Of a stretch of DNA of 64,000 bases, positions 301 through 51,647 are shown in pieces. Below the pieces are notes generated by a model that was given only the letters and a program-made list of their open reading frames with translations, did not search any database and was not told where the DNA came from. A program made the position numbers and the translations under genes. The number at the start of each line of letters is the position of its first letter. Positions within the stretch are counted from its first letter, which is position 1. This stretch comes from Psammoneis japonica (Eukaryota), in contig QPGO01000135.1 of NCBI GenBank assembly GCA_008632985.1, positions 124,001 through 188,000 of the forward strand, in the 5' to 3' direction.

Positions 301-302
301 AG

Positions 303-836: not shown

Positions 837-876
837 AGCAGTTCAAAAACACCACCCTTGAAGCCAGCAATGACTC

Positions 877-18410: not shown

Positions 18411-18934
18411 AACGTGGCCATCTGGTGGGGCAATGATCTGAGATGCGAGCCAGCATGGCAAAATTTCCGTCACTGCAGAAAGTCGGATTTGTCCTGCGTT
18501 GTTGGTTGCCTGATGCCAACTCTGCACGCCGGCATGCAGACAACTGATGTTGTCACATGCACATTCACAATCATGTGTCATTTGTGTGTCAATCGCACCA
18601 CAGTTGTGGATGTGCACAAAGGACAGAACGATCACACAGAGTTGATCGGATGTCGAAAATTGCAAATACGATCGATTGACGATGTTGACATCTCACGTGT
18701 CAATGGCAATGGCATCCAGACAATCTGTTGTCATGAACACATTCTTCGAAAGGCCTTTTGTTTGTAGAAACAGTGCAGAAGCTTTGGGCCATTGAGAACT
18801 CGTTCGGAGAAACCAAAAATCACAGAGCAAAATTTAATCTCATAATTTTCACTTTTCATGCTTGATTCTACTTTCATTTGTGCTGGTTCGTTGAGCACAG
18901 TGCACTCTCTGCAGAACCAACATGCACTCAAGTT

Positions 18935-20634: not shown

Positions 20635-23600
20635 TGAACAAACACTGCCATGACAGCTGAGAATTGGGCACAAGACAAGACAGAGTGTTGAACAGCATCA
20701 ACAGGTTCTAGAATTGTGAGATGTTGTGCTGCTGGGACCACTGAACAAGCAACAGTGGACCAATCGCCAATGGCACATAAACTGCCTGTGTTCGTGACAG
20801 CACATCAGCATTTGTTCAGTCCCCTCAAACTGACACTGGCTCCACTTGGGCCAGATCGACAGACAAATGCAACCTGATGCTGCCCTGTTCCAGGGCAGTG
20901 TCATCATTTTGGGGGTGGGAAAAGCCGCACCTACACGGCAAACCCATTTGGTTTGTCCCCTTTTGGGACTCACCATAAAATGTGACTTGTAATTTCCCGG
21001 AGCTTCCGTCCAGGCAATGACTTGGTCAGTGCATCCACTAAATTTGTGCACCCGTCTTCCCAAGCAATGCACACTGTTCCAGCGGCTTGTGCCTTGCCAG
21101 TCCTGTGACAGGCAATCGCATTGTGCTTTTTCTTCAAAGTAGACTCTGGTTTAGTTGAGTTCTTGAAGACAGCCTCATTGTCGCAGAAGACATCAGTGGC
21201 CCCATCCATGGGGATTCCGAGCATTCAAAGCTTGTGACGCAAGGCTTCAATTTGCTCCACTGCAGTCTTCATCACCACGAACTCCGATCCAAAAGCAGAG
21301 GACTCTACGGTTTTCTGCCATTTAGAGTGGCACAAGATGGGTGCTCGTTGAATGAATGTCAGGATCCCAGTGTGGGACCTGCTCATCACACGGCATCCGG
21401 TGTGATCAGCATCGACAAAGCAAGCAGTGGTCACGCCATTCCCACATGCTTCCAGCATGTTCAGCGGCATTGGTTCAGCTGTGCCAGGGTGGTGTTCTTT
21501 CCAATTGCACTTGGTAAAACAACTCTTGTCAAAGACAGGCTCAGTGTCATCGAACACTGGCACAGACTTAGAGTGAGCCTTCAAGCATGCCAAGACATGG
21601 AGCACCTCGTCCAGGTGTCCAACTCGTGGTGATGCCAAGTGGGAGGACATGAGCGAGACAGTGACAAAAATGTCCACTCGCCCTAGTTCAACTGCCCATC
21701 GTAGCACACCAACAAGGCCTTGGCAGCAGTTGGCCGTTTTGGCATTAAACTCGGGTGAACCATCCAGTTCAGGCCCATGTCCCGAGCTCAAGGGCGTCGA
21801 CGCCTTCGTCGGAAGGCGCCTGTCGGTTTTCTTAAGCTCTAATTCAACATCAGCTAATGCCCTTTTGGCACAAAGGTCAGAGGACATGGCCCAGCGTGTC
21901 TTGCCATCCGAGTCAGACAACTGGCACTTTCTGATCTGGGTGCCCAAGCACTCTTCCGGCTCGCAGACACTTCCGTCCTTGAGCATGCACCTAGAGCTCA
22001 TATAATCCATGACCTTCTGAGGTTCATGGGAGACGCACAACAAGTCGTCCACGTAAACAAGCACATGTTCCCAGTGCTTGAAGCCATCCCGCTTAACTGC
22101 AGCTTGCGTCCAAACGTCCAGGTCAGCCTTGCAAGACTCAAACCCAGCATCACGCAAAGTGGCTGCCATGTGTTCCCTAAATCTTGCACCTGAAGACTTG
22201 AGACCACACAAGGCTCAGACAATTGTCATGCTTCCCAAATTCCAGGCCAGCAGCAGCATGGCACTTCTCTTTAGTGTGTGCATTCAAGCAGGCATTCTGA
22301 ATGTCAGCACTCAGGACCTCCAGGTCATTCAGAGCTGCTGTGGTGAATGCCATCCTGTCGCTGTCACACGACACCATGCTGGAATGAGTCGATTCCTTGG
22401 GTGGATTGGTTTGATGGCCTCCGGCCACAAACCTCGCTTTACATTGGAGGGTGCTCTTGATGTCAAAGATCACATTGCAATCAACATGTTTGCACCCGAC
22501 CGGCACAGTGTCGTCATCATGGAATTCAAATGCAGGCATGATGTCACACATGTCCTTCTTGACAGCCTTGAACCAAAAGTCAGACCCCATTCTGTTGTCC
22601 AACTCCATGGCTTCCTCAACAGATTTTGGGAGTTCAATTCCAAACTCATGCGTGCATTTCCAGTTACGCGACTTGACTTTCTTCAGGATCCTTGACCTGT
22701 GACGCAAGACATCTTGGACCCACCAGTTAAAAGCTGGTTCACTGGCTGCCTTGTTCGCCACAGTGCACTCAGCAACCTCGACTGGATTGGATTCCTTCAA
22801 ATCCTTGAGGGGAACCCAGGATGCAGTCCCATCCTTCCATTTGACTTGCAGGTCCCAGCCTGCAGTTGTCCTCCTGGGAGCACGCCTGCCAGTCTCAGTC
22901 GTCATGCACCCATCATCAGCCATGACATCGGTGATCGACTGTCTCCTTCATAATCTGGCAGGCATTCCCTTCAGAGTCTATCTGAGCAAACAGGTTCTCT
23001 GCAATTACGTTAGCAGCACAGGAATCAGTGGATCCATCAGGAAACTCCACATCGTGTGTCCTCGAGTCTGGGACAGGGTTGTCGTTCCCAGTGCCAATGG
23101 GAACCCCATCGCCATCTAGTTTGCATGCAACAACCTCAGCATGAGTCAGCTCGCCTCCATGTGGTGACATGACTTGAGCTGTGAGGCATTCATGTGGCCC
23201 CTCCGGGGTGTGCTCATCAGCTTCTGGTTTGGAAGCGTTGGGTTCCACGGGTTCGACAGCATTGTCCCATTCATCCATGAAGTCATCAGGGAGTTGATGG
23301 AAGTCAGCATTGGCACCCTGTTCTGGGATGTTAAGTCGTTCGATCAAAGTCTGATCGACTGATGCTAGATCCAATTGGATTGCTGGAGTTTTAAAAGGTC
23401 ATCCTCCGGCATGGCCCATGCATCTTTCCGAATGATGGGTCTGCCTGATTCGGGCAGAATGACAAATGCCATGTCGTCAGTGCAGTTGTCGGCTGCTCCG
23501 AGCCAACAGCCGATGCACTTCTTCTTGTGTGGGAACTCCACCACAGGCATGTAATGGCAGACAGGTTGACACCAATCAAAGAGAGAGAGGGACGAAATGT

Positions 23601-26600
23601 CAGGTGTTGAACCTGTCACCTCTTCTTCTGGGACTCGTCCTCCCACATCTGACATGCCAGTCGCAATCATGCATCGGACATCACACATCTATTTGGCACT
23701 GCAGGACCAAAGTTGCCTGTGAGCGCCTCAACAGATTTCGGGAGTTCAATTCCGAACTCATGCATGCGTTTCCAGCAATGCGACTTGACTTTCTTCAGGA
23801 TCCTTGACCTGCGATGCAAGACGTCTCGGACCCACCAGCTAAAAGCTGGTTCACTGGCTACCTCATTTGCCACAGCACACTCAGCAACCTCGACTGGATT
23901 GGATTCCTTCAAATCCTTGAGGGGAACCCAGGATGTGGTCCCATCCTTCCATTCAACTTGCAGGTCCCAGACTGTGGTTGTCCTCCCAGGAGCACGCCTG
24001 CCAGTCTTAGTTGTCATGCACCCGTCATCAGCCACAACATCGGTGATCAACTGTCTCCTTCACAATCTGGCAGGCATTCCCTTCAGAGTCTATCTGAGTG
24101 AACAGGTTCTCTGCAATTACGTTGGCAGCACAGGAATCAGTGGATCCATCAGGAAACTCCACATCATGTGTCCTCGAGTCTGTGACAGAGTTGTCATTCC
24201 TGGTGCCAATGGGAACCCCGTCGCTGTCTTGTTTGCATGCAATGACCCTAGCATGAGTCAGCTCACCTCCATGTGGTGACATGACTTGAGCTGTGAGGCA
24301 TTCATCTGGCTCCTCCGGGGTGTGCTCATCAGTTTCTGGTTTGGAAGCATTGGGTTCCACGGGTTCCACAGCATTGTCCCATTAGTCCATGAAGTCGTCA
24401 GGGAGTTCAGGGAAGTCAGCATTGGCATCCTGTTCTGGGATGTTAAGTCATTCAATCAAAGCCTGATTGACTGATGCTAGATCCGTTTGGATCGCCGGAG
24501 TTTTAAGGTCATCCTCCGGCATGGCCCACACATCTTTCCAAATGATGGGTCTGCCTGATTCGGGCAGGATGATAAATGCCATGTCATCAGTGCAGTTGTC
24601 GGCTGCTCCGAGCCAATGGCGGATGCACGTCTTCTTGTGTGGGAACTCTGCCACAGGCATGTAACAGCAGACAGGTTGACACCAATCAAAGAGAGAGAGG
24701 GATGAGATGTCAGGTGTTGAACCTGTCACCTCTTCCTATGGGACTCGTCCTCCCACATCCGACATGCTAGTCGCAATCATGCGACGGACATCACATGTCC
24801 ATTTGGCACTGTAGGACCAAAGTCGCCTGTGAGCGCCAGTCTGGCATAGAGTCACGCGGACTCTCTTCTTCAACTCACGAATGGATGCCTTGGCTGGGTT
24901 CTGCCAGGGGCTGCACGGGGTGGACACCTCCTGGTGCATCCTGCATTCCTTGCAAATCTTCTTGGTCTGGCCCTCCGCCATTTCCGGTGTGCCATCCGAC
25001 ACAAGGACTTGTGGTGTGCCAACGTCATGCACAAATGACATGATGGCATTCGGGTGGTCCTGTTTCCTCTTCCAAGGATGGAACCTGTCACACCCTCTTC
25101 CGTTGGTAAACACACTTCCTCCTGTCTCGCCATGCATCGATTTAACCTTCGAAAACTTCTGGTCAGAGTAGAAGCATCCCTTGACAGCAGGGAACTTAAG
25201 CCAAGGGGCTTTCTTCCGGACTTTCCGTTCGGATGGTGTGCAGACATTGTGGACCCCTGCCTGGGTCGTCACTCTAAGGGTGTTCTTAGCAGCTGTCAGA
25301 CCAATGTTCCACCTCTCAGAGAGTGTCTCGAGTGTGACAGTCGATGCACAACTCAAGGTCGACAGTGCATGCACCCGTTTCCGCTCAGCACAATCCGGGT
25401 GGACATCTGGGTCACACCAGTCGTGTAGCCCGTCTCCCTCAATGTCGTTGTGGGAGACATTCACCTGAGCAACTAGGCGGTGATACAGAGAATCATCGTC
25501 ATCAGTGTCCATGATGACATTCTCATCGTGACAAGACGTTTGATGTGAATGAATTGATGCGACACACCTGGTCGCATTCATCATCATCGCCTGTCCATCA
25601 GACTTTGCTGATCCTTGGCGTGTGCCAGCACATGCATGCGCTTCCTCCTTTTGCGCCATGGCATCAGCAGAAGGCTCCCATCTCAGGGGTGATGTGAGTT
25701 CCAGCCGGGGAAGGTTCTCCAGATCCTCCTTTGTCGGCTTGTGTGAGTCAAAAACTGAAGCAACACCTCACATGCGCAATGGGATCCTGATTTTCGAGTT
25801 AGGGAAAGCAACAGAGTGTGTGCTGTTGGGATCAAACTGGCGAGGGGTGTCGTGGACAGTCAGTCCATTAGCTCGCAGTTGGTTGGGGCACAGCAGGGTG
25901 TCAGTCATCCTGTCCCCAAAAAACATGGCCTCATGGACTAACAGCAGGCATGGTTGTCCATCAGTTGGATCAACCCACACAGCAGCAGCCGTGCAAATGG
26001 AACATTTCGCATTGGTGCATGCTCTTCGGAGCAAGGATGTACTACAACAGTGCCGTTGACATCAGAGCACATGATAAAATTGGACCCAACAGCACATGTG
26101 TCAGAGTGTGAGTCCAAATCATTGGTCGCTTCACCATCTGAATGTCCAGCAGATGACAAAGAGACATGTGTGTCCTTTAGGAATTGCCCAGATAAATGCA
26201 CAGTGCCAGCAGGTGTAGTGACAGTCGGTTCCATGCCTTTCAGTGCTGGCGCAACTGTTCATTCCTCTTTCTGAGGTTTCTCATGGGTGCCACGTCCGAA
26301 CTGCGTGCCTGCATTGGCAGCAGGCTTGGCCGACTCTTCGGAGTCCTTTTGTTCATCAGCAGTTTTAGGCTCAGGCTCGGCAACAGCCACTTTCTTAACA
26401 GCGCGAGTTTCGGCATCGACCAACTCAGCCTCCAAGGATGCAGCTGCTGCTTTGCATTTCTTCTTGGCTTTCTTGGCCTCATGGAGCTTCTTAACTTGCT
26501 CTTGCTCAGGACCGTCAAGAGCACTCCACTCTTCAATGGGACAATGGCCTGCCCTGATCCTGGGCTTGTCCTTTTTAGGTTGGTGCTTGCCGCCAGGGTT

Positions 26601-28312
26601 TCCGCGCCGGTTGTTGCGGCGTTGGATGGATGGGATGCCGTGAATGTCGGCGTTGTGGTTCTTGGCATTCTCCACCAGAGTTTTCACATGCTGCTGGCAT
26701 GCTTTGAAATCCGCTGGCTTCGTCAGGTCTCTGTCCACTGCACTCTTGCCAGTCTCCAACCTGGTGTCAGAGATGCCCTTGAGAAAGTCAGAGACCTTCT
26801 TGGTCTCGGCTGCTGGTTCATCCAGCTCCGACAAGTTCCAGTGTACTTCGCGGCAGCAATCTGTGCATGGGCACGGTTCTTTTGGGTGGTGGCAGCAGCC
26901 GATCCTTCTGCCTGCCTCTTGAGTGCAAAGAAGGCAGCACGACCATCGCGATTGCAATTGGAAGGTTTGACAACAGCCCATCCGGCCCCCCTGTCACCAA
27001 CTTCTTCAAGAGATCATGCAGGTGTTGCCTTTCCTGTGTGTGCTGAGCTCCTGCAAGTTGGGTGGCAGCAATGAGGTCTTCGTCAATGGTGGAGCAAGCA
27101 GCAGCCAACATTTTGGCGGTGACCTCTTCATGCTCCCCAACTGGGCAGATGAGGGGTGCACCAGCAACGGCACTGCGGTGGTGGTGCAGTTCAGTCTCCA
27201 GTGACTCTTGGAAGGTGGGTCAGTCATGCAGATTCTTGAGTTCCATGGCCGTCTTGGCAGCGGATTCATCATCCGAGTCCACTGACTTGAATTGTTCCAA
27301 TTCTGTGAGATGTGCCATCCATGTCCCAATGACATCACCAGCAAGGAGACCAGCAGTCGGCTGTTGGTTCCGGGCCCTGCGGCAGTCAATCCATGCGCGC
27401 AGCACCTTGAACTTGCGATTCGCCAGGTGTGGGAAGCGGACTTGGGGGTTGGCGGCGGCATCCACGCTCTTCACAATGCCCTTGGTCATGGCAGCAATTT
27501 CTGCCAAAGGGACCTGTTCCAAGTCCTGAATGGTGGCAAAGCCTTGACCGGCTGTGCAGGCACGCGTCTGTGCATTGCATCCACAATGTGCAAGACAAGC
27601 AGCAAAGGCTGCAGCAGTGGTCATGGTGTGTCAGCAGTCATTTGTGTTTCGACGCATGAGCATCCACTTGTGTGAGTGGAGAAAAGTGAGAAAAACGTGT
27701 GGTTCTCATGCTGATTTGGTGGTTTCTACTTGGCGAACTTGCAAGCAGGCGAGGTTACACTTGAGCAACAATTTCCAACAGACATGCATCTACATGTGCA
27801 GTGTCTAAGCAGTTTGACAACATGTTTTGATTAATCAAATGCATGTGATCAAGCAACAGACCTCAACACATAAATCGTTGTGTTGTCTTCATCACGAATG
27901 TGTGTGTTTCTTAGCCAACACATTCCATCCACATGATCAAACATTCTGTCCACTAACGTCATGTCCAACCGATCACAGCTCTGGTCTCCAAGAGCACATC
28001 ATTCACATCCATGAACATTGACACATGTGAAGGACTCAGCAATTACGTGAGCAACCATGGGACCAACATGGCGCTTGCCGCAAAAATCTCCAGGCGATAA
28101 ACATCACAGCACATTGGCTCTGACAAAGTGAACAAATGCTGCCATGACAGCTGAGAATTGGGCACAAGACAAGACAGAGTGTTGAACAGCATCAACAGGT
28201 TCTAGAATTGTGAGATGTCATGCCACTGGGACCACTGAACAAGCGACAGTGGACCAATCGCCAACAGCACATAAACTGCCTGTGTTCGTGACAGCACACC
28301 AGCATTTGTTCA
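20635..28312 (-). mobile_element. Decayed full-length Ty1/copia element (family B, minus copy)
   Basis: 184-bp LTRs 20635-20818 and 28129-28312 (TG...CA); TSD ctga; PPT gagggga; gag-PR-IN-RT(YVDD)-RH order. Confidence 0.92.
22616..24837. repeat. Internal tandem duplication of about 1.11 kb in copia B minus (22616-23727, 23728-24837)
   Basis: Constant offset of 1110-1112 between matching strings; junction gagcgcc|tcaacag. Confidence 0.9.
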
Positions 28313-31300
28313 CTGACGCTTCGAACACCAGACAATTGGAGCCCAACACAAGAAGATCAAAGTGCCTGCCTGGCTGTGACAGTCTGCAACATTTCCGGCA
28401 TGGTTGGCATTGGCAAAACAATGCATGGACACACATTTACCTCAAGGAGGTGGCGCATTTGGTGGGACACCCTCCTTTGCATCCCGATGGAAATCACACC
28501 AGTTGCACATGACAAATGGACGGTCATCAATCACCAGATGGGTTGGATGAAAGGCCATTTGCCATTTTGGAACCTGTTTGAGACACACAAACATGTGCAG
28601 CACCTGTTCCAGATGGCCAATCCATGGCAACGTGAGGTGAGCAGACATCAAAAATGCTTCCAGATGAACATCAACCCTGCCAAGTTCCACAGCCCAAATG
28701 AGTGTGCCAACCAGCTCTTGGCAGTGATTGAGCCCTGCTGCGCCCAATTCTCCAGCCTCCTTTGCATCCCGATGGAAATCACACCAGTCACACTTAATGA
28801 ATCAACGGCCATCAATCACTGGATGGGTTGGATGATCAAAATGCCTGCATGGCTGTGATGGTCTGCAACATTTCCGGCATGGTTGGCATCGGCAAAACAA
28901 TGCATGGACACACATTTGCATCAAGGTGGCGGTGCATTTGGTGGGACAGCCTCCTTTGCATCCCGATGGAAATCACACCAGTTGCACTCAACGAATTGAT
29001 GGTCATCAATCACCAGATGGGTTGGATCAAAGGCCATTTGCCATTTTGGAACCTGTTTGAGACATGTGAACATGTGCAGCACCTGTTCCAGATGGCCAAT
29101 CCATGGCAATGCAAGGAGAGCAGATGTCAAGAATGCTTCCAGATGAACATCAACCCTGCCAAGTTCCACAGCCCAAATGAGTGTGCCAACCAGCTCTTGG
29201 CAGTGATTGAGCCCTGCTGCATCCAATTCTCTGGAAGTGTCCAACTCTGGTTTGTAGCCACTGCTCAAAGGCATGCAAGCCTTTCCGGGCAACCGCTTTC
29301 CCTCCTTGGCCAGTTTGTCTTCGACATTCTGGACAGCAGCCTTGCAGCACTTCTTGGCAAACACAGTCCAACACGTGGCACTGTCAGCTGCATCCATCTC
29401 AGACAATGCAGCACCAAGGCAGGAGTCTGGTTTGGCTGCTTTGTCATCCTTGAGCTTGAACTTGAGCTTGATTCCATCCATGGTCTTCATCGGTTCATGG
29501 CTAATCAACAGTAAATCATCGATGTAAACCAACACACACTCGCAGCATTCAAGCCCATCGGATTTGACCGCAGGTCTCATCCATGCATCTGGATCAGCCT
29601 CACTCAGTTTGCACCCTAGATTGTAAAGCGTCTCTGCTGGGAAAGCCCTGGGTGCCACTCCTGAACTCTCTAATCTGTAGAGAGCTCTGACTGCAAGCAT
29701 GATGCAACCTTGTTCCTTGCCAAATTCTCAACCAGCTTTTGGGTCTAGATCCTTTCTCTGCATGGAGCAGTGAGGCAGGCATTCTGGATGTCACAGGTGA
29801 ACACTTGCAAGTCATTGAGCACAGCAGGAGTCAGAGCAATCCTTGCCAAATCTCTGGAGACAACGGAAGAACAAGCAATGGTGGCTGGGGTCTCAGTCAT
29901 GTGACCACCTGCCACCATCCTTGCCATGCAACGAAAGTTCTCCCCAAGTTTGACATCAAAGATAAAGTGACACTTGATCTCTTGGCAGCCTGGGGCGACA
30001 TCCGTTTCTTCTCTGTCAAACTTTTCAAACACAACTTGAATGTTCTTCATCTCCTTGCAGATGGAATCCCACCACAAGGTGTCCCCATTCATGCAGTCAA
30101 GTTCTAAAGCCTCCTTGACGCTCCTTGGCTTCCTGATTCCAAATTCACAGGTCCTCAACCAATGCTTTGACTTCACTTTTGCCATGGATTGCTTGCGAGT
30201 TTGCAACACATGTGGAGCCAAATGCTGCTTCTTTGGAGATCTTGTGTTGGATGGCAAACTCAGCAACTTGGACAGGGAAGCTTTCCTTCAAGTCCTTCAA
30301 ATCCACCCAAGTTGTGCTGCCATCCTTCCACTGAAAAAAAGCTCCCATCCCTTGGTTGTCTTGCGTTTTCTGTCATTGCCTTGCTCAGTCTCAAAGAAGG
30401 TGGTCTCCGGCACGTCCCCATTTGTCCAAAAGTCAACTGCATCATCGAATGAGACGTGCCAATTCCCATCCTTGTCGATCTGTGCAAACATGTTCATGGC
30501 AATGGAGTCAGGGGACAATGCGGCAGCATGCCCATCAGGGTGCTCTACCTCATGCATTTGTGCATCTAGAATGGGGTTGTCATTGGCAGTCCCAATTGGA
30601 ATGCCATTGGCATCCTGCAGCCTCTTTGTAATGCGTGCAAATGTGGGGCCATTGTCGTCTCATGGGAAAGTGACCTCCATGTTCAAATGGCCCCAATCTG
30701 CAGCCTCCGGTGAGGCTTCCTCATCTTTTTCATCATCATCATCATTCAACACCTCTTCTGTGCTAATGACATGGTTGCACTTGTCGAGGAATTCATCATC
30801 ATGTCCAAGGCAGTCCTTCCAGTCTTTGGGACTGATCCGCCATTCTTCATCTTTTGGGAAGTCTTGTTCCCTTGGCCGGCATTGGACCTCCCCATCAAAT
30901 GTGTTGAACCTGTCTTGATCAGCTTGCACATAGACTCAAGGTTGGTGACTTGTTGCACAGACGTTCTTGACATGACATGACCTGTCTGTGTCAAGATGCA
31001 ATGTGACATGAGGCTCCCAGTGCGATGGGACACACCGAGCCACCCACCAAGTTTCTGGTCTCTGAGACCTGCATTCTCCCGACACCATGCCCAGTTGTAG
31101 AAACCAAAATCCAGGTGCTCAGAGATGTCAATCATCTCGCCAAGCATTTCTTCTAGAGGTGCTTTGGCATCTAGATGGTGAGCATGAACGAATGTGCGTG
31201 AAATTGTCTTGCAACACCAAACTGCCCCACAATCCCAAAGACGTGGTGGAACCTGCTTCTTGACCATGCAGTGGAACCACTTGTGCCAAATCTCACAGAT

Positions 31301-34300: not shown

Positions 34301-34630
34301 TGCAACTCAATCATGCAACAAGTGACCGCAACCAGCTCATGGAGAACCACAGAAAAGTTTCCCTCCAAATGACACATCACCAATGACCGATGACTGGCAA
34401 TGGCTGGTGCAGCACACCAATCCACAAAACATGGCACAGCACTGCCATTTTATTTGGTTGAGAATTGAGCAGAACTTTTTGATTCAGCTAATGAGCACCT
34501 TGCTCACTCCACCCACAGGCTCCAAACCTGGTTGGCAATCATCAGACCCATGTTTAAGTCCAGCATCTGTGAGGCAGAATGGTTTTGGCAATGCTGTTTC
34601 AGGCTGATCACTGTTCACCCGTGTTGCATG

Positions 34631-35425
34631 TTAAGTGTGCTGGGGATGTGGGTTAGTTTGTTGCTGGAGTTGTGGGGCAGAATCACAGCAGCACCTTAAA
34701 AACAGATTTTGGGTTTTGTTTTTGGCTCCCTGAAGCATGCTTCCACAGTGGTGTGTGGTGGTTGGCAGCAGCAATTTCTTGGTGCAGAATTGTTCCTGCT
34801 CTGCCACCGTGGGTGTGAGGTTTCCCAAGAGAGCAAGGTCACATTGTTCAGTGCACACCTGGACATTCAAACCTTGGTTGCTCAAGAAAAATCCACAGGT
34901 GAGTGGGGAGATGCCCACTGTCAAGTCATTGACCTGGTGCACGTGTGATCCAACCTTGCCTTGGAACACCAACTTGTGGAGCTCTTTGGAGATGACAGGT
35001 GCCATTCAAAACACAGTGTCCAGCTCTTGTGCATGGGCCTCCGGCACACACAATGCCCCATTGTCCGGCACACTAGATGGCAGCAGCCCGACAGGTGCAG
35101 TTTGCGGGAAAGCCTCCACCAGAGTTTTTGGGGCCACTGCTGTGGAAGCTGCTGCAGTGCAAGTGGCTTTGGCTCTGGCTGCATTGGCTTGAACAATGTT
35201 GGCAAAGGCTGGAACTTGGTCCATGTTGTTGACCACTGCAGCATCCAGTGCAGGCAGGTCTTGGAGCAATGGTCTTGGAGCCCTGCATTGACAGCCAGGG
35301 GTGGCAAGACAGTGGCATGCCCCCCCAAACAGTGCACTGGGTCCAGATTGGTGGCGGCATGCACAGCAAGGGCAGGGAGTTGCCTCAGAGTTGTTGAAAC
35401 TGTGACTCAAATTGAAATGCTTCAT
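34631..35425 (-). pseudogene. Probable ORF1 (gag-like) remnant of a tyrosine-recombinase retroelement
   Basis: APVISKEL...NDLTVGISPL resembles DIRS/Ngaro ORF1 segments; recall only. Confidence 0.35.
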
Positions 35426-35614
35426 TCTTGGATGAAATCACAGGAAATTGCAATGTCTGCATTATGATGCCAATCACACCTTGGACAGTAAAAAATTCAG
35501 TCTGTTGCCCTTTGCACTTGTTGGCAACAAATTGTTCCAGACAAATGAGTGTGTTCAAGCATGTCCAGATTTGAAGCTTTTGACAACAAGAAAGTCATTG
35601 CAGTGTTTGTCACC

Positions 35615-35730
35615 AAACAACTTTCAACAACTTTTTGTTGAAAGTCACAACTTTCAACACCTTTTTGTCAAAAGTCGCAACTTTCAACAAATTTTGCATT
35701 GAAAGACGTAACTTTCAACAATTTTCAACC
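35615..35730. repeat. About four 30-bp tandem units, each an imperfect palindrome
   Basis: aactttcaacaactttttgttgaaagtcac-type units. Confidence 0.8.
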
Positions 35731-36554
35731 CATCCACTCTAGACATCACAAGGAATGGCAGAACAACACACCAACCATCTCTGGATGCTTGCATCTCAAC
35801 AGCCACTGCTCACACAGAGCTGTCCAGCAGCATTTTGTGAATGACTTTGCATGCTCTGTGTTGATCTGCAGTGTGAAAAAGTGGTGCAAGTGCATTCCAA
35901 GAAAGACATTTGGCAAGAGACAACTTGAAAATCTGCTGTTGTTTCTCCTGAAATCAATGAGAGTTGTCTGTTTGTGTTGTTGTGTGCTTTGCCCCCCCAT
36001 GACACCTGCTTCTGACATTCACCACTTGCATTTTGCATGACGTGATGCATGATGCCCTTGGTGTGGCTGAAACTTTGGGTTGCAACTGATGTCTGGAAAA
36101 GCTGCAAGCAGGGAAAATTTCCTTTTCACCATGGTCAATCGGCCACACAAGCACAATCAACAAATGGCAAAAGTGTGAAGGTGTGTGAGATGGGCCATCA
36201 CCTGGCTCATGTGACAGAGGTTTTTGATGGGCAATTGCCGTTGGCCACACTTGGCACTTCAGATGGCATTGCAGAGAAGTTCCATTGTGAAGGTGTCAAG
36301 AAAGGGATTTGCTCAGTGTGGCTGATGGAGTTGCTCATGGCTTGGTGCTTGGCTCCAAGGATGAAACTGTCAAAGACGCAGCATGCTGGGACTCAGACTT
36401 GGAGCTGCAGGTGGATTGCCAGGCTGAGAGAATCAAGCCACTGACAGTTTGCCACTGGGATTCTCACTCAGAACTGCAGATGGCACTGACAACATGCCGC
36501 TGGGGGAATCGCTGGGTGAGATGGATGGCACCAGCAGATCACTGCCTGGCAGGA

Positions 36555-36810
36555 CCTTTGAGCAATCTGTCCAACAACTTTTGACATTTTTTGTTGCAGC
36601 ACCATTCTACAATGTCTTGGGAATCGCGCAGGGCAGGTGCATTTGCAAAAACGTCGAGTGGCAAGAGGCTCAATTGCACCACAAACTTGGCCGTTTATTT
36701 GATGTGGAAGACAAACACACCCATCAATTAAAATCTTGTGCTACGGAGCTAACACGTGGAATTCTGTGGGCCCAATGTCACATGGAGTCCCACCCAGCTA
36801 GAGGGCTGGA
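36555..36810 (+). mobile_element. MITE family partial copy (right part)
   Basis: Matches 1605-1850 and ends gagtcccacccagctagagggctgga. Confidence 0.75.
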
Positions 36811-37364
36811 GCACTTCTTGTGAGCATCGGACTCACATTTTTCTTCTAACGTCAGCACAGCAATGGTCCATCACCTTGTGGCATCTGTGAGGACTCCATA
36901 AAAATGCATGTCACATTAAAGTGACAAGGTGTTGGCATTTTTGGCAATTTCTTCCGAGGCCCACTTGAGTGCGACATGAGTCAAAACCATGTTGGCAGCC
37001 TTCTGTGCGCGCATTTTCCAAATCGCAAATCACTGCCGCCCATCTGCAGACACATGTGAGCATGTTGGAAAATGGAATGAGAGGCAACGCAACAATTCAA
37101 TTGTGAATTTTATCTTCATTTCATTTTGCCTTGTCACTCATGAGAGCAACCCACTCGGCAACCCAAAAAAACAAGGTCGAACTGGTTCCATCTGCCGTGC
37201 ACTTGTTGACACTTGTGGCTTTGAACATGTCTTGTGGCAGGTGTGAAGGTGTTGACAAAAGGTGTTGGATGTGCTGCAGTCTACAGAATGAAAGCCCTCA
37301 GGAGCTGTCTTTTGCTGCATCATCAGAGCATCAAACAATTCGATGTTGAACGGCATCGATGACA

Positions 37365-37480
37365 ACACAAACAGATTTTTTGTTGAAAGCACAAGTTTTA
37401 ACATGTTTTTTGTTGAAAGAACAACTTTCAACAGATTTTTGTTGAAAAATCTAACTTTCAACAACTTTTTGTTGAAAGCA
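37365..37480. repeat. Second array of about four 30-bp palindromic units
   Basis: aactttcaacagatttttgttgaaa-type units, same family as 35615-35730. Confidence 0.8.
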
Positions 37481-37506
37481 GGGTGTCCGTTGAGTTTTGA
37501 CCCAAA

Positions 37507-40500
37507 GACGTGTTCGAGCTCTGCCAGGTGGGACCTCACACCACTGCACTGTGACATCAATGGTTTTGAATGAATGCTGACATGCTGTCATGAATGTAGG
37601 CAGTTTATGCACTGTTGGCGATTGGTCCACTGTCACTTGTTCAGTGGTCCCAGTGGCGCAACATCTCACAATTCTAGAACCTGTTGATGCTGTTCAACAC
37701 TCTGTCTTATCTCACACCCAATTCTTGGCCATTGTGGCAGTGTTCACTCACTTTGTCAGAGCCAATGCACTGTGATGTTCATCGCCTGGAATGGGCATCA
37801 TGAACGGCATGATGACATCGTTGCGATTGATCGATTTTTGCTGCAAGCGCCATGTTGGTCCCATGGTTCCTTGCACAATCGCTGAGTCCTTTGTGTGCAT
37901 CAATGTTCATGGACATGAACGACATGCACTTGGAGACCAGAGCTGTGATCCATTGAACATGACGTCAGTGGACCGAATGTTTGGTCATGTGGACAGAACA
38001 TGTTGGCTAAGACACACAAACATTCGTGATGAAGACAACACAATGATTTGTGTGTTGAGGTCTGTCATTTGATCATGTGCATTTGATTAATCAAAATGCA
38101 TTGTCAAACTGCTCAGACACTGTGCATGTGGACACATGTCTGATGGAAATTGTTGCTCAGGAGCAACACCGCCTGCTCGCGGGTTCGCCAAGTAGAAACC
38201 ACCAAATCGGCACAAGAACCACACATTTTTCTCACTTTTCTCCACTCACACAAGTGGATGCTCACGCGTCAACATGCAAACAACTGCTGACACACCATGG
38301 CCGCTGCCACAGCCTTCACCGCTTGTCTTGCGCATTGTGGATGCAATGCGCAGATGCGTGCCTGCATGGCCGGTCAAGACTTCACTGCTGTTCAGGACTT
38401 GGAACAAGTCCCTTTGGCAGAACTTGCTGCTGTGACTGAGGGCATTGTGAAGAGCATGGACACTGCCGCCAACCCCCAAGTCCGCTTCCCACACCTGGCA
38501 AATCGCAAGTTCAAGGCACTGCGTGCATGGATTGACTGCCGCAGGGCCCGGAATCAACAGCCGACTGCTGCTCTCTTCACTGGTGACATTGTTGGGACAT
38601 GGATGGCACGTCTCATGGAACTGGAGCAATTCAAGTCAGTGGACTCGGACGATGAATTGGCTGCCAAGACAGCCGTGGAACTCAAGAATCCATGTGACTG
38701 GCCCACCTTCCAAGAGTTGCTGGAGACTGAACTGCGCCACCACCGCAGTGCCGTTGCCAGCACACCCCTCATCTACCCAACTGGGGAGCATGAAGATGTC
38801 ATCGCCGAAATGTTGGCTGCTGCCTGCACTGCCATTGACAAAGACCTTGTTGCTGCCACCCGACTTGCAGGAGCTCAGCATGCACAGGACAGACAACACC
38901 TGCATGTTCTCTTGAAGAAGCTGGTGACAGGGGGGCCCGGATGGGCTTTTGTCAAACCTTCCAATCGCAATCGCGATGGTCGCACTGCCTTCTTTGCAGT
39001 TGAGAGGCAGGCGGAAGGATCGGCTGATCACGATGGTTGCACTGCCTTCTTTGCACTTAAGAGGCAGGCAGAAGGATCGGCTGCCACCACTGCCCGCAAG
39101 AACCGTGCCTGTGCACAGATTGCCATGGCAAAGCACACCGGATGGCGTCCATTCACTTTTGACCAGTGCACTCAATGCCATCAGAAAGCTCACAACGACT
39201 TGTCGGAGCTTGATGAACCGGCAGCCAAGACCAAGAAGGTCTCTGACTTTCTCAAGGGCATCTCCGACACCAGGTTGGAGACTGGCAAGAGTGCAGTGGA
39301 TGGAGACCCAACAAAACCAGCGGATTTCGAAGCATGCTAGCAGCATGTGAAAACTCTGGTGGAGAATGCCAAGAACCACAACACTGACATTCACGGCATC
39401 GCATCCATCCAACAACCGGCGTGGAAACCCTGGCGGCAAGCACCAACCTAAAAAGGACAAGCCCAGGATCAGGGCAGGCCATTGTCCCATTGAAGAGTGG
39501 AGTGCTCTTGACGGTCCTGAGCAAGAGCAAGTTAAGAAGCTTCACAAGGCCAAGAAAGCCGAGAAGAAATGCAAAGCAGCAGCTGCATCCTTGGAGGCTG
39601 AGTCGGTCGATGCCAAAACTCGTGCTGTTAAAAAGGTGGCTGTTGCCAAGCCTGAACCTAAACCCACTGATGAACAAAAGGACTCCGAAGAGTCGGGTGA
39701 ACCTGCTGCCAATGCAGGCACGCAGTTCAGACGCAGCGCACACAAGAAACCTCAGAAAGAGGAATGAACAGTTGTGCCAGCACTAAAAGGCACAGAACTG
39801 ACTGTCACTAAACCTGCTGGCACTGTGCATTTATCCAGGCAATTCTTAAAGGATGTGCATGTCTCTTTGTCATCTGCTGGACATTCAGATGGTGAGGCAA
39901 CCAATGACTTGGACTCACATGTTGATGCGTGTGCTGTTGGGTCCAATTTTGTATAAAGCACTCTGATGTCGACCGCACTGCTGTGGCACATCCTTACTCC
40001 GAAGAGCATGCACCAATGAAAAACATTCCCATTTGCATGGCTGCTGCCGTGTGGGTTGATCCAACTGATGGACAACCATGCCTGCTGTCAGTCCATGAGG
40101 CTGTGTTTTTTGGGGACAGGATGACCAACACCCTGCTGTGTCCCAACCAACTGCGAGCAAATGGACTGACTGTCCACGACACCCCTTGCCAGTTTGATCC
40201 CAACAGCACACACTCTGTTGCTTTCCCTGACTCGAAGATGAGGATGCCATTGCGCACACGAGGTGTTGCTTCGGTTTTTGACTCACACAAGCTGACTAAG
40301 GAGGATCTGGAGAACCTTCCCCGGCTGGAACTCACATCACCCCTGAGATGGGAGCCTTCTGCTGATGCCATGGCGCAAAAGGAGGAAGCGCATGCATGTG
40401 CCAGTGTACGCCAAGGATCAGTAAAGTCTGACGGACAGGCGACGATGATGAATGCGACCAGGTGTGTCGCTTCAATTCATTCGCATCAAACGTCTTGTCA

Positions 40501-43500
40501 CGACGAGAATGTCATCATGGACACCAATGATGACGATTCTCTGTATCACCGCCTAGTTGCTCAGGTGAATGTCTCCCACAACGACATTGAGGGAGATGGG
40601 ATGCACCACCGGTACGACCCAGATGTCCACCCGGATTGTGCCAAGCGGAAACCGGTGCATGCACTGTCGACCTCGAGTCGTGCATCGACCATCACACCCA
40701 AGATGCTCTCTAAGAGGTGGAACATTGGTCTGACGGCCGCTAAGAACACCCTTAGAGTGACGACCCAGGCAGGGGTTCGCAATGTCTGCACACCATCTGA
40801 ATGGAAAATCCAGAAGAAAGCCCCGTGGCTTAAGTTCCCTGCTGTCAAGGGACGCTTCTACTCTGACCAGATGTTTTCGAAGGTTAAATTGACACATGGC
40901 AAGACAGGAGGAAGCGCATTCACCAACGAAAGAGGGCATGATGGGTTCTGTCCTTGGAAGAGGAAACAGGACCACCCGAATGCCGTCATGTCATTTGTGC
41001 ATGACGTTGGCACACCGCAAGTCCTTGTGTCGGATGGCACGCTGGAAATGGCGGAAGGCAAGACCAAGGAGATTTGCAAGGAATGCAGAACACACCAGGA
41101 GGTGTCCACCCCACACAGCCCCTGGCAGAACCTGGCTGAGGCATCCATTCGTGAGTTGAAGAAAAGAGTCCGCGTGACTCTGCGCCGGACTGGAGCTCAC
41201 AGGCGACTTTGGTCCTATAGTGCCAAATGGATGTGTGATGTCCGATGCATGATTGCGACTGGCATGTCGGATGTGGGAGGACAAGTCCCAGAAGAAGAGG
41301 TGACAGGTTCAACACCTGACATCTCGTCCCTCTCTCTCTTTGATTGGTGTCAACCTGTCTGCCATTGCATGCCTGTGGTGGAGTTCCCACACGAGAAGAA
41401 GTGCATTGGCCGTTGGCTCGGAGCAGCCGACAACTGCACTGATGACATGGCATTTGTCATTCTGCCCGAATCAGGCAGACCCATCATTTGGAAAGATGTG
41501 TGGGCCATGCCGGAGGATGACCTTAAAACTCTGGCAATCCAAACAGATCTAGCATCAGTTGATCAGGCTTTGATCGAACGACTTAACATCCCCGAACGGG
41601 ATGCCAATGCTGACTTCCCTGAACTCCCTGATGACTTCATGGACGAATGGGACGATGCTGTCAAACCCATGGAACCCAACGCTTTCAAACCAGAAGCTGA
41701 TGAGCACACCCCAGAGGGGCCAGATGAATGCCCCACAGCTCAAGTCATGTTACCACGTGGAGGCGAGCTGACTCATGCCAGGGTTGTTGCATGCAAACGA
41801 GACAGCAATGGGGTTCCTGTTGGCACTGGGAATGACAACCCTGTCCCAGACTTGAGGACACATGATGTGGAGTTTCCTGATGGATCCACTGATTCCTGTG
41901 CTGCCAACGTAATTTCAGAGAACCCATTCGCTCAGATAGACTCTGAAGGGAATGCCTGCCAGATTATGAAGGAGACAGTCGATCACCGATGTGATGCCCG
42001 TGCCGTGACGGCTGATGATGGGCACACAATGACTGAGACTGGCAGGCGCGCTCCTGGGAGGACGACTGTGCCTGCCAGATTATGGAGACAGTCGATCACC
42101 GATGTTGTGGCTGATGATGGGTGCATGACGACTAAGACTGGCAGGTGTGCTCCCAGGAGGACAACCACAGGCTGGGACCTGCAAGTCAAATGGAAGGATG
42201 GGACTACATCCTGGGTTCCCCTCAAGGATTTGAAGGAATCTAACTCAGTCGAGGTTGCTGAGCACGCTGCAGCGAACAAGGCAGCTAGTGAACCAGCTTT
42301 TAACTGGTGGGTCCGAGACGTCTTGCGTTGCAGGTCAAGGATCTTGAAGAAAGCCAAGTCGCGTCACTGGAAACGCACGCACAAGTTCCCAATTGAACTC
42401 CCGAAATCTGTTGAGGAAGCTGTGGAGATGGATGACAGAGTGGGGACTGACTTCTGGTTCAAGGCTGTCGAGAAGGAAATGCGCAACGTCATGCCTGCAT
42501 TCGAATTCCACGATGACGATGCTGTGCCAGTCGGGTGCAAACACGTTGATTGTCATGTGATCTTTGACATCAAGAGCACCGTCCAACGTGAAGCGAGGTT
42601 CGTGGCCGGAGGCCATCAAACCGATCCACCCAAGGAATCGACTTATTCCAGCATGGCATCGCGTGACAGCGTTAGGATGGCATTCACCACAGCAGCTCTG
42701 AATGACCTGGAGGTCCTGAGTGCCGACGTTCAGAGTGCCTGTTTGAATGCACACACCAAGGAGAAGTGTCACACCACTGCTGGCCTGGAATTTGGGAAGC
42801 ATGATGAAGGAAGGCCGGCAATTGTTGCCCGAGCCTTGCATGGTCTCAAGTCTTCAGGTGCAAGATTTAGGGAACACATGGCAGCCACTTTGCTTGATGC
42901 TGGGTTCGAGTCTTGTAAGGCTGACCCAGATGTCTGGATGCAAGCTGCGGTTAAGCCGGATGGCTTCAAGCACTGGGAACATGTGCACTTGTTTATGTGG
43001 ATGACTTGTTGTGCATCTCCCATGAACCTCAGAAGGTCATGGATTGTGTGAGCTCTGGGTGCACGCTCAAGGACGGAAGTGTCTGCAAGCCGGAAGAGCA
43101 CTCAGGCGCCCAGATCAGAAAGTGCCAGTTGTCTGACTCGGACGGTGGGACACACTGGGCCATGTCCTCTGACCTTTGTGTCAAAAGAACATTAGCTGAT
43201 GTTGAATTGGAGCTTAAGAAAACTGATGGGTGCCTTCCGAAGAAGGCGTTGACGCCCTTGAGCTCGGGACACAGGCCTGAACTGGATGGCTCACCTGAGT
43301 TGACATGCCAAAACGGCCAACTGCTGCCAAGGCCTTGTTGGTGTGCTACGATGGGTGGTTGAACTAGGGCGAGTGGACATTTTTGTCGCTGTCTTGCTCA
43401 TGTCCTCCTGCTTGGCAGCACCACAAGTTGGACACCTGGACGAGGTGCTCCACATCTTCGTGCACTTGAAGGCTCGCTCTAAGTCTGCGCCAGTGTTCGA

Positions 43501-44763
43501 CGACACTGAGCCTGTCTTTGACGAGAGTCGTTTTACCAAGTGCGATTGGGAAGAACATTGCCCTGGTGCAGCTGAACCAATGCTGCCGAATGTGCCAGAA
43601 GCATGTGGGAACAGCATGACCACCACTTGCTTTGTCGATGCTGATCACGCTGGATGCCGTGTGACGTGCAGGTCCCACACTGGGATCCTGACATTCATTC
43701 AACGAGCGCCCATCTTGTGCTGCTCTAAATGGCAGAACACCGTAGAGTCATCCACTTTTGGGTTGGAGTTCGTGGTGATGAAGACCACAGTGGAGCAAAT
43801 TGAAGCCTTGCGTTGCAAGCTTCGAATGCTCGGAATCCCCATGGATGGGGCCACCAATGTTTTCTGCGACAATGAGGCTGTCTTCATTAACTCAACCAAG
43901 CTGGAGTCTACGTTGAAGAAGAAGCACAATGCGATTGCCCATCACAGGACTTGTGAGGCACAAGCCGCTGGAACAGTGTGCATTGCTTGGGAAGACGCAC
44001 GCACAAATTTAGCGGACGCACTAACTAAGTTGTTGCCTGGACTGAAGCTCCGGGAAATCACAAGTCACATCCTGTGGTGAGTCCCAAAAGGGGACAAACC
44101 GAACAGGTTTGCCGTGCAGGTGTGGCTTTTCCCATCCCCAACATGAAAATGCCACCCTGGAATGGGGCAGCATCAGGTGGCATTTGTCTGTCAATCTGGC
44201 CCGAGCGGAGCTAGTGTCAGTTCGAGGGGACTGAACAAATGCTGATGTGCTGTCACGAACATGGGCAGTTTATGTGCCATTGGCTGTCAGTCCACTTTCA
44301 CTTATTCAGTGGTCCCAGTGGCGAAACATCTCACAATTCTAGAACCTGTTGATGCTGTTCAACAGTCTGTCTTGTCTTACACCCAATTCTTAGCCATCAT
44401 GGTGGCATTTATTCAGTTTTTCGGATCGCGTCGTATGTCGCGCACGTGCATTTCTACGTGTGACATTCTACGAAATTGTTTCTACTCCCTGTTTTGCGAA
44501 GCCAAAGGCTTTCTATTTTCAACATTTATGAGAGTGAAAATGCGCTGGGGTACATTCTTTAATGTCTGTAGAATGCACCCGGGCAAACTGTCAATGACGC
44601 ACGTCAAGCATGAAGGAGGAGATGTGTTCGTAAAATTGCCTCTTTTTCTGTTGGCGATCATTTGTATTTTCATTGCAGCACAAATTTACTGCAGAGCTCG
44701 CACGTAGAATTCTACGGGCCCCAATGTCACACGGAGTCCCACCTGCTGGGACTGGAACCCGTC
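37507..44763 (+). mobile_element. MITE split by the copia B plus insertion (37507-37566 and 44416-44763)
   Basis: Left terminus gacgtgttcgagc at 37507, right terminus ctggaacccgtc at 44763; TSD caaa at 37503-37506 and 44764-44767. Confidence 0.88.
37567..44415 (+). mobile_element. Decayed full-length Ty1/copia element (family B, plus copy)
   Basis: 184-bp LTRs 37567-37750 and 44232-44415; TSD gttt; gag from 38297, PR DLDSHVDAC, IN-RT ORF 39929-43051, RH ending 44080; PPT gagggga. Confidence 0.92.
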
Positions 44764-45040
44764 CAAAGCTGGAAATGTGACATCGGTTTCTGAACAATTT
44801 AATCTGATGAAAAGGCATGACAGAAATTGAAGGCAAATGGCAAGAATTCAAACAATAACTCCTTACTGCTGTCTAAATAGCAGATGAGTCTCCGCTCAGA
44901 GACCGTTGCAGGAGCCGAAAGACGTGTAAGTCGGTATAATCGGGCTACTGTCATTATTCTTGTGAGCCTTGTGGCTCGAAAGCAAACTACATCGCGCGTG
45001 AACGCGCGGAACTAAAGCACACAAAACTGTGCACGGTAAA

Positions 45041-50709: not shown

Positions 50710-51630
50710 GGTAGACAAAAGTGGTGTCAGGACAATCAATTCTGGTTGGGAAGCGAAGGTAGACTCGAAACTTGGGTGAGAACAGACTTGACTTGAAACA
50801 GACTTGACTTGAAATCTTGAACTATCTTAAAATCAGAAGTCGCCGGGCTTTGTCATCCCGTTCGTTGTTAAGTGCTAAACTTCCTATCCGGTCCGTAGAG
50901 TTGTGCCGGCACGTCCGAACCCGCAGCTAGTGGCGCTTTGGGTTGCTTATGAGCGGAGTAGCGGGTTGTAAACCCCTGCAGGTAAGCTGACTAGAGGTGG
51001 ACAAGACCCCCGAACCGTTCTTATTTTATATCGGTTGGATTTCCCGATCAGGCTGGCCAGTTGACGTAGGCGTTAGGCGCTGTGGACGAACGAACAAACG
51101 CGGGAAAGCACCCTCGCCCCAACGTAGGCTGTAATCACGGCTGCTTGCTCTCACAGTCGTCCTCGTGGACCTAGTAGAACTGTAGAGCACCAGTAGTCCG
51201 GGGTAGATCAGGTACAATGGACTCGGTGTGCTTGTAGAGTGGTAGCAAAACCGTAGTCCGAAGAGTGGGTACAGGTTCTTGGCCGTGAAGATATGTATAT
51301 ATATATGTCTTCAGCGACGAAGATCCCCTGAATATGTAGGGTTCTTGACCGTTAACCGATGAATAGGTATATCAAGGGATGAGGATCAAGGATAGACTTG
51401 GATATGACCGTTGAATGTATGTCTTCAGCGATCAAAGGTAGTATAATCAATCCAGATATCCAGCGGTAAGGAGACTTGACGGTGACGTTAACTTCCTGCC
51501 GATGCCCTGGTATTGAATGCGCGTAGACTTGCTGATGTATGTAGAATATATACGGAGGTCCACGTAGAATTGAAATAGCGTCGTTGGTAAATCAACGACG
51601 ACGATGGCGGTTGCTCAATGGGTTGACAAT

Positions 51631-51647
51631 GCGCAAGACTGTTAATC
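51631..51647 (-). promoter_or_regulatory. Primer binding site, probably for a 5' half tRNA-Asn(GTT)
   Basis: Directly inside the 5' LTR; the plus strand reads gcg caaga ct GTT aa tc, an anticodon arm. Confidence 0.65.

Follow-up and report, generated by a model that had tools for sequence, protein, structure and literature searches.

What turned the same tyrosine into cysteine in one copy of a retrotransposon and into histidine in the other? The question is raised by a stretch of 64,000 nucleotides of Psammoneis japonica (positions 124,001 to 188,000 of contig QPGO01000135.1, assembly GCA_008632985.1), which is called the window in this study and is numbered from its first letter. Two copies of a copia-type long terminal repeat (LTR) retrotransposon, designated A and B, lie in the window. 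The initial annotation, made from the letters alone, proposed that Tyr codons had become Cys in one copy and His in the other by independent hits after insertion. It was examined whether this holds, and what the ancestral dinucleotides were. In summary, both copies have very probably been degraded after integration by a hypermutation specific to TpA dinucleotides, acting together with a decay of CpG dinucleotides.

Two dead copies of one copia family

A and B are dead Ty1/copia-type LTR retrotransposons of one family in opposite orientation. Copy A (20635-28312, minus strand) is 7678 nucleotides (nt) long and degenerate; it was delimited by self and cross BLAST, by alignment with B, by its LTR ends, and by tblastn with RVT_2 proteins. 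Its 5′ LTR and 3′ LTR, both 184 nt in length and on the minus strand, lie at 28129-28312 and 20635-20818, respectively. Copy B (37567-44415, plus strand, 6849 nt) has LTRs of the same length at 37567-37750 (5′) and 44232-44415 (3′). The LTRs of both copies have the termini TGAAC...GTTCA, and the polypurine tract GAGGGGAC precedes the 3′ LTR. A 4-bp target duplication flanks each copy, TCAG in A and GTTT in B, and thus A and B are separate insertions. The LTR ends and the target duplications agree exactly with the element limits given by the initial annotation. Copy A also has an internal tandem duplication (22614-24837, minus strand), whose two arms of about 1.1 kb are 91% identical to each other and 91-92% identical to B. 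Either this duplication is old or the divergence of the arms is dominated by saturated TA and CG sites; majority-rule polarity is unreliable in the arms due to this saturation.

Copy B has an open frame of 1040 codons (39929-43051, plus strand) covering the region from the putative integrase to the reverse transcriptase. The RVT_2 match lies at residues 866-1003 of this open reading frame (ORF), with an E-value of 2e-07 and a score of 31.3 bits, which is slightly under the Pfam cut-off of 31.6, as expected for a decayed copy. A Pfam scan of the decayed ORF gave no integrase match. A conserved P-Y-S-P-W-Q-N...E block at about residue 395, upstream of the RVT_2 match, may be the integrase core. 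In a database search, PF07727 was found in 70 of the 83 homologues listed for the B ORF, with about 50% and up to 53% identity. The homologues are mostly RVT_2 polyproteins of 1100-1430 amino acids, and 60 RVT_2 homologues span both copies by tblastn. All protein clusters matched were RVT_2 clusters, one of them with a weak hint of diatoms (the phylum is known for two members). A scan of metagenomes for members of the family found one distant relative (L001) and no further copies.

How do the two copies differ? Their global alignment has 6657 aligned bases, 89.2% identity, and 720 mismatches. As many as 635 of the mismatches are transitions, nearly equal in number in the four directions (148-173 in each), and 544 of these transitions are exchanges among CG, TG, CA, and TA. 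Adjacent double differences between TG and CA occur 153 times (84 + 69, covering 306 positions), while 7.2 + 5.3 would be expected from independent neighbouring substitutions; 1000 shuffles gave 12.5 such differences on average and never more than 25. There are 180 differences between CG and TG or CA and 58 between TA and TG or CA. The dinucleotide classification of the alignment contains no exchange between CG and TA. TA is retained in both copies at 43 sites and CG at 122 sites. Thus, the dinucleotide-swap pattern is real and lies far beyond chance.

Tyrosine codons and the ancestral dinucleotide

All of the peptide pairs singled out by the initial annotation are present: ALCGLK (A, 22197-22214, minus strand, with TGT) and ALHGLK (B, 42833-42850, with CAT); LRHKL (A, 21228-21242) and LRCKL (B, 43808-43822); AIACHR (A, 21102-21119) and AIAHHR (B, 43931-43948); STPCSPWQN (A, 24898-24924) and STPHSPWQN (B, 41105-41131); VAEC (A, 22765-22776 and 23877-23888) and VAEH (B, 42254-42265); and ESTHSS (A, 22378-22395, with CAT) and ESTYSS (B, 42635-42652, with TAT). 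Were these residues originally Tyr? The 60 intact homologues were mapped codon by codon onto B, with 36-60 homologues aligned per Cys/His column, and a column was regarded as a conserved Tyr column when Tyr occurs in at least 70% of the homologues. In 13 of the 15 codon pairs with Cys/His between A and B, the homologues most often have Tyr, and several of these columns have Tyr in every aligned homologue. In the 13 Tyr-dominated columns, Arg occurs at 0-8%. An ancestral Arg codon (CGY) followed by CpG decay was also considered for the Cys/His pairs and was rejected, since the homologue columns show Tyr in 13 of 15. One of the Cys/His pairs, at 42329, is matched by K/R in the homologues. As an example of the Tyr columns, the codon at 42839-42841 of B (plus strand) is CAT (His) and its counterpart in A (22206-22208) is TGT (Cys), while Tyr is found in 60 of 60 homologues. 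At 42644-42646, within the ESTYSS peptide, B (plus strand) has kept TAT (Tyr), while A has CAT (His), a single step from TA to CA.

Among 28 conserved Tyr columns, the residues in A and B are Y/Y in 3, C/C in 7, H/H in 5, and C/H or H/C in 10; the remaining columns are N/H, H/Y, and F/F, one each. Counted per copy, conserved Tyr columns have Cys 18, His 12, Tyr 3, and Asn 1 in A (n = 34), and His 12, Cys 11, Tyr 4, and Phe 1 in B (n = 28). Thus, each copy holds both outcomes, as the initial annotation stated, and this bears out its exclusion of a codon reassignment. The other conserved residues are mostly kept in both copies (W 19/21, F 20/21, K 21/23, D 33/35, H 12/13). With 24 of its 28 conserved Tyr replaced, the product of the 1040-codon frame of B does not look functional, although the frame is open.

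The effect is not specific to Tyr. TpA was hit everywhere: in Ile and Leu codons, in non-coding DNA, and in other element families. A conserved Ile at 41090 is ATG in A and ACA in B, matching an ATA ancestor, and a conserved Leu at 41132 is CCA in A and CTG in B, matching a CTA ancestor. At conserved Arg columns, Arg is replaced by C, Q, W, H, or a stop. Homologues cover 70 of the 153 TG/CA swaps (83 are uncovered); the ancestor fits TA in 28, CG in 10, both ambiguously in 20, and neither in 12. Judging from the homologues, about three quarters of the 38 resolvable swaps would derive from TpA and about one quarter from CpG. Thus, the reading of Tyr changed to Cys or His is correct at most sites, with two additions: TpA is the target in general, and CpG decay provides a minority of the swaps. 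The distant metagenomic relative (42% amino-acid identity) has an observed/expected ratio (o/e) of 0.79 for TpA and 0.94 for CpG. This ordinary composition indicates that the family is not intrinsically TA-poor.

Independent changes in the chromosome and their sequence context

At integration, an element has two identical LTRs. The LTR pair of A now differs by 4 TG/CA swaps, no TA-type difference, 1 CG/TG difference, and 1 other transition, so that 5 of 6 events lie at pyrimidine-purine (YpR) steps. In the LTR pair of B there are 9 TG/CA swaps, 6 differences between TA and TG or CA, 1 CG/TG difference, and 6 others (YpR, 16 of 22 events). The 3′ LTR of B retains TA at three sites where its 5′ LTR and both LTRs of A have TG or CA (alignment columns 147, 159-160, and 178-179). 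A younger element of a second family in the window, described below, has an LTR pair with 1 TG/CA swap, 3 TA-type differences, 1 CG/TG difference, and no other (YpR, 5 of 5 events). Since the LTR pairs differ at YpR steps, the changes arose in the chromosome after insertion, as had been proposed along with the observation that the LTRs differ mainly by TG/CA swaps.

Did the hits occur independently in A and B? In the 22 conserved Tyr columns with Cys or His in each copy, the outcome is the same in 12 and different in 10. This ratio fits the 1:1 of independent 50:50 hits, and thus nearly all hits were independent in the two copies, in agreement with the initial annotation. A TG outcome corresponds to a change on the sense strand and a CA outcome to a change on the antisense strand. 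TG and CA outcomes number 152 and 137 in A and 124 and 131 in B, and Cys and His at Tyr codons of both copies number 29 and 24. Thus, there is no excess of sense-strand A to G over T to C changes, which supports the earlier exclusion of RNA editing restricted to the sense strand. The order of the outcomes along the copies is random in runs tests (z = 1.52 and 0.70), and these tests found along A or B no strand-coordinated clusters of the kind left by processive single-strand deaminases.

The window was also compared with the contigs of a public run (X1; 141 Mb in total, word depth about 50), which may be from the window's own sample. These contigs agree with the window to about 99.5% over a single-depth spacer between the two copies, and 78% of the 31-mers of the window are present in them. 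The X1 depth suggests that the family of A and B has tens of copies. Among 40 listed of the 48 differences, 21 are between CG and TG or CA and 6 are between TA and TG or CA. In the same 40, the TA-type differences are split evenly between the two directions (3 and 3), and in 12 of the 21 CG-type differences X1 has the CG where the window reads TG or CA. By estimate, the variability per site is about two orders of magnitude higher at TA and CG than elsewhere. Although TA and CG are rare, they are overrepresented among these differences, which argues against an assembly artefact. The hits are thus independent on three levels: the two copies, the two LTRs of an element, and the window compared with the X1 contigs.

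Which TpA sites are hit? In old DNA versus the young element, the trinucleotide o/e is 0.05 versus 0.49 for TAT, 0.09 versus 0.63 for TAC, 0.15 versus 0.50 for TAG, and 0.20 versus 0.44 for TAA. As for tetranucleotides, ATAT is at 0.00, ATAC/GTAT at 0.02, and GTAC at 0.04, while TTAA survives best (0.32). Of the TA sites shared by A and B, 26 of the 42 listed are YTAR (Y, pyrimidine; R, purine). The tetranucleotide order is obtained from a model that treats each strand separately and lets the 3′ neighbour of an A determine how readily that A is hit (T > C >> G > A). The direction of the products follows the same rule. Across all repeat pairs of the window, sites whose top-strand A has a 3′ pyrimidine and whose bottom-strand A has a 3′ purine gave TG 52 and CA 28, while the mirror class, with the 3′ pyrimidine next to the bottom-strand A, gave TG 26 and CA 48 (Fisher p = 3.5e-4, for pairs that are not fully independent). 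The comparison of A with B alone has the same trend (15/5 versus 3/7). TA followed by a 3′ pyrimidine is therefore preferred, that is, T-A-Y, which equals R-T-A on the other strand.

The matrix of A and B and the 28:10 split suggest that the ancestral 6.7 kb had about 330 TA and about 380 CG. On the assumption of equal TG and CA outcomes, each copy would have lost a fraction of about 0.78 of its TA and about 0.45 of its CG, by which TpA would decay about 2-3 times faster than CpG. For the stop trinucleotides, the o/e is 0.20 for TAA, 0.15 for TAG, and 1.52 for TGA. The process removes TAA and TAG but never gives rise to them, and dead elements therefore keep very long ORFs on both strands. Overlapping long ORFs without a family match were observed on both strands, for example, 26196-27074 (plus) over 26259-26981 (minus); they fit the loss of TAA and TAG rather than real genes.

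Is the rest of the window affected as well? Over the whole window, the o/e is 0.16 for TpA, 0.51 for CpG, 1.62 for TpG, and 1.65 for CpA, and it is 1.06 for TC and 1.03 for GA. The region 1-44700 consists of TpA-depleted, nested debris of old LTR elements (TpA o/e 0.08-0.20, CpG 0.23-0.62), and this debris continues at 52000-64000 (TpA 0.07-0.08, CpG 0.18-0.25). Old parts of the window are down to a TpA o/e of 0.07-0.11. The depletions of TpA and CpG are loosely coupled: TpA is at 0.1 and CpG at 0.6 in 1-16 kb, while they are at 0.07 and 0.2 in 52-64 kb.

Between these two regions lies the young copia-type element of the second family (44818-51923, minus strand), whose 276-nt LTRs are 98% identical with 6 differences. 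It serves as an internal control, with a nearly normal CpG (o/e about 1.0) and only a mild loss of TpA (o/e 0.4-0.64), and it has an RVT_2 match with an E-value of 6.7e-26. Two overlapping frames of 857 and 1064 codons (45041-47614 and 47545-50739) are open, and the element may have been recently active. The homologue set fits this family poorly, and the Tyr-column control on the young element is not clean. An old relative of it (54424-57373, plus strand, 75% identical) was used for polarising the changes. The 40 TA sites of the young element correspond in the old relative to 4 TA, 16 TG, 11 CA, and 9 other dinucleotides; the reverse, TG or CA in the young element and TA in the old relative, was found in only 5 cases versus 27 forward. 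The 201 CG sites of the young element correspond to 34 CG, 56 TG, and 71 CA. A solo LTR of the young family (60042-60319) is 95% identical to the LTR of the young element, and in the LTR trio of this family, TA, TG, and CA stand together at three sites.

The 26 long ORFs of the 64-kb window that were tested by Pfam include no host gene, and their matches are only to copia-type (RVT_2) and gypsy-type fragments (RVT_1/RNase H, Integrase_H2C2, and aspartyl protease). The gypsy-type remnants (a gag aspartyl protease, RVT_1 with RNase H, and an integrase zinc-binding domain) lie at 12485-13198, 17717-18436, and 53241-54485. They are equally TpA-depleted, and thus the process is not specific to copia elements. 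An Rfam scan of the window gave 0 matches. The spacer between copies A and B (28428-36431), at single X1 depth (about 50), is nevertheless among the most depleted DNA, with a TpA o/e of 0.09-0.11 and a CpG o/e of 0.23-0.29; it contains a 482-codon ORF (32515-33963) without a family match and is probably very old element debris mutated past recognition. A family of short repeats, with units of about 200-300 nt that are 66-91% identical, was found at 1-4232, 17026-17814, 36470-36804, and 44361-44759, with spacings of 338, 390, and about 1550-1650 nt; it borders the copia copies. A spike of the X1 depth to about 7400 at 36432-37098 indicates that this short repeat is present in very high copy number in the genome. 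The two units of a direct repeat of about 490 nt (8689-9177 and 10235-10724), at a spacing of 1546 nt, are 95-98% identical; they may represent either a tandem duplication or the two LTRs of an element that is small or truncated.

Explanations and known systems

What process could have done this? TpA hypermutation was described in mutation-accumulation lines of the chlorarachniophyte Bigelowiella natans by Mettrop et al. (April 2026, bioRxiv 10.64898/2026.01.13.699255), in a preprint. In that organism, an integrated giant virus and a virophage received 231 of 302 new mutations. With one exception, these were changes of A to G or T to C, and every such change was on TpA. The rate is about 6e-7 per site per generation, and 11 of 15 lines were affected, in bursts. 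Reverse-transcriptase and DDE Pfam families are overrepresented among the TpA-depleted coding sequences of B. natans, 124 clusters of windows poor in TpA were reported, and an ADAT2-like adenine deaminase was proposed (bioRxiv 10.64898/2026.01.13.699255). None of the words CpG, LTR, retrotransposon, and trinucleotide is used in the main text of the preprint. Full-text literature searches found no report, besides this preprint, of an A:T to G:C chromosomal hypermutation specific to a dinucleotide. A term search of the Maumus 2009 paper on diatom copia elements (PMC2806351) found no discussion of point-mutation patterns.

CpG decay alone would explain the Cys/His pairs by Arg codons (CGY) whose methylated CpG was deaminated on either strand. 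It would account for the CpG o/e of 0.51, the 180 differences of the CG type between A and B, the fates of conserved Arg, the 10 of 38 resolvable swaps that fit CG, and the pair at 42329 with K/R in the homologues. However, the homologues have Tyr, not Arg, at 13 of 15 pairs, 28 of the 38 resolvable swaps fit TA, TA persists as a third state in the LTRs, and a TpA o/e of 0.16 is impossible from CpG decay. CpG decay is thus refuted as the sole cause, for which I see hardly any chance, and is a parallel contributor of roughly one quarter of the swaps. RNA-level A-to-I editing by an ADAR- or ADAT-like enzyme before reverse transcription, by which the copies would have been born mutated, is about equally improbable. 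The targets are indeed retroelements, and a 5′ U preference is typical of ADAR (bioRxiv 10.64898/2026.01.13.699255). But sense editing yields A to G only, while TG and CA are about equal here (152/137 and 124/131; Cys 29, His 24), and the LTRs of one element differ by these changes, as do the window and X1 at the same locus. Moreover, the B. natans process acts on a single-copy integrated DNA virus (bioRxiv 10.64898/2026.01.13.699255). An assembly or base-calling artefact at modified bases is the least credible of all. Miscalls of methylated CpG could give the 12 of 21 CG-type differences in which X1 carries the CG; an artefact is opposed by the agreement of X1 over the unique spacer (about 99.5%), by the TA-type differences going both ways (3 and 3), by changes that respect protein homology, Tyr going only to Cys or His, and by the young element, which is unaffected although it lies in the same contig.

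A genome-wide compositional or mutational bias against TpA, with the copies drifting to equilibrium and mobile DNA not being targeted, would fit the fact that every old part of the window is affected, whatever the element family. It is nevertheless improbable, though less so than the three above, as the young element in the same window has a TpA o/e of 0.4-0.64 and a CpG o/e of about 1.0, and functional sequence carries TA. A more substantial rival, which I still regard as unlikely, is the same pattern with another chemistry, in which a base modification at the palindromic TpA makes it mutable without a dedicated mutator deaminase. The candidates are N6-methyladenine and thymine oxidised to 5-hydroxymethyluracil or 5-formyluracil, the last of which mispairs with G. 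The symmetric, unclustered, site-by-site pattern mirrors CpG decay in the same DNA, and in a dinoflagellate 5-hydroxymethyluracil was reported to take the place of T, with a preference for TA and TC, and to be enriched over repeats (PMC11071213). On the other hand, TpC is not depleted here (TC o/e 1.06, GA 1.03), and the bursts in only 11 of 15 B. natans lines suggest a regulated activity (bioRxiv 10.64898/2026.01.13.699255).

Hypermutation specific to TpA together with CpG decay thus remains by far the likeliest account. In this account, the copies decayed in the chromosome after integration by two dinucleotide-specific processes, both ending in TpG/CpA. The dominant process is a TpA-specific change of A:T to G:C, in which G is read in place of the A of TpA on one strand or the other, so that the top strand becomes TG or CA at random. 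The second, which I read as separate and slower, is the ordinary decay of CpG to TpG/CpA, as expected from cytosine methylation. The host process may be the same as that acting on integrated viral DNA in B. natans, and it would be directed at silenced foreign or mobile DNA. The chemistry may be an enzymatic adenine deamination on DNA (to inosine) by a TadA/ADAT2-like deaminase, a serious candidate that I stop short of calling probable. The natural target of TadA and ADAT2 is A34 of the tRNA anticodon loop, after U33. The T-A motif and the preference for a pyrimidine resemble this target. Considerably more tentative, and on balance doubtful, is the idea of a standing genome defence that wears down every LTR retrotransposon here faster than CpG methylation decay does, by an anticodon-loop-type (TadA/ADAT2-like) adenine deaminase acting on duplex DNA in chromatin, to which the T-A-pyrimidine motif, the equal hits on both strands, and the lack of clustering would point; this would possibly make a second organism besides B. 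natans, and a lineage-wide system resembling the repeat-induced point mutation (RIP) of fungi with the opposite polarity.

Several points weigh against this account or its wider parts. The 43 TA and 122 CG sites kept in both copies do not fit a single-rate model, so that heterogeneity among sites must be assumed. T-A-Y is equally R-T-A with the lesion on T, and so the motif does not separate adenine deamination from a modified thymine. The lowish TpA of the young element (0.4-0.64) could be early damage or an adaptation of the lineage. With no host gene in the window, the sparing of ordinary genes, that is, targeting, has no comparison. As for the identity with the B. natans process, it is the signature that connects the two. 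The hypermutable regions of the B. natans lines showed no excess of C to T, whereas strong CpG decay, as read from composition, is present in the window; the two processes may have no relation to each other.

How does this compare with known systems? As in fungal RIP, a host process appears to riddle repeated mobile DNA with transitions at one dinucleotide, on both strands and after integration. RIP, found in ascomycete fungi, changes C to T at CpA and thereby creates TpA. Here, in contrast, TpA is destroyed and G+C is gained (TpA o/e 0.16, TpG/CpA about 1.6, with TA going to TG or CA). Since a single-copy region is hit in B. natans (bioRxiv 10.64898/2026.01.13.699255), repetition is probably not the trigger. 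The likeness to the decay of CpG by 5-methylcytosine is close: the dinucleotide is palindromic, TG or CA results according to the strand hit, and the changes are symmetric and independent site by site. Unlike CpG decay, the main process here starts at TpA and goes from A:T to G:C, for which no comparable spontaneous chemistry is known. Similarly to APOBEC3 and ADAR in animals, deaminase-type transitions inactivate retroelements, and ADAR also prefers a 5′ U. APOBEC3 and ADAR act on cDNA or RNA during replication and leave strand-asymmetric and often clustered changes, whereas the changes here are post-integration, symmetric, and unclustered.

The closest system is that of B. natans. It shares with the window the change of TpA to TpG or CpA, the direction towards GC, the action on integrated chromosomal DNA of foreign origin, and a long-term footprint of low TpA with high TpG and CpA. 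In B. natans, the process is live and the viral regions are only mildly lowered in TpA (Rho 0.45 for the giant virus), whereas here it is a near-saturated fossil in LTR retrotransposons with an o/e of 0.07-0.2. The B. natans type is confined to foreign or mobile DNA while the host mutates normally; here, the one support for such confinement is the young element, which is far less affected. The window adds saturated LTR-retrotransposon targets, the T-A-Y preference, concurrent CpG decay, the proof of in situ change by LTR pairs, and the runs test. It offers an evolutionary end-state beyond the reach of mutation-accumulation lines, LTR retrotransposons with about 80-90% of their TpA lost, and new constraints on the mechanism, which has to prefer a 3′ pyrimidine, act equally on both strands, leave no processive clusters, and proceed about 2-3 times as fast as CpG decay. 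It is also a warning, because dead elements with kilobase-long frames are taken for intact ones by gene finders; a diagnostic is "proteins" that lack Tyr and are rich in Cys and His. A natural adenine-to-guanine mutator of DNA with a defined motif would interest base-editing research. If the reading as a standing defence is true, TpA hypermutation is not a curiosity of the two integrated viruses of B. natans.

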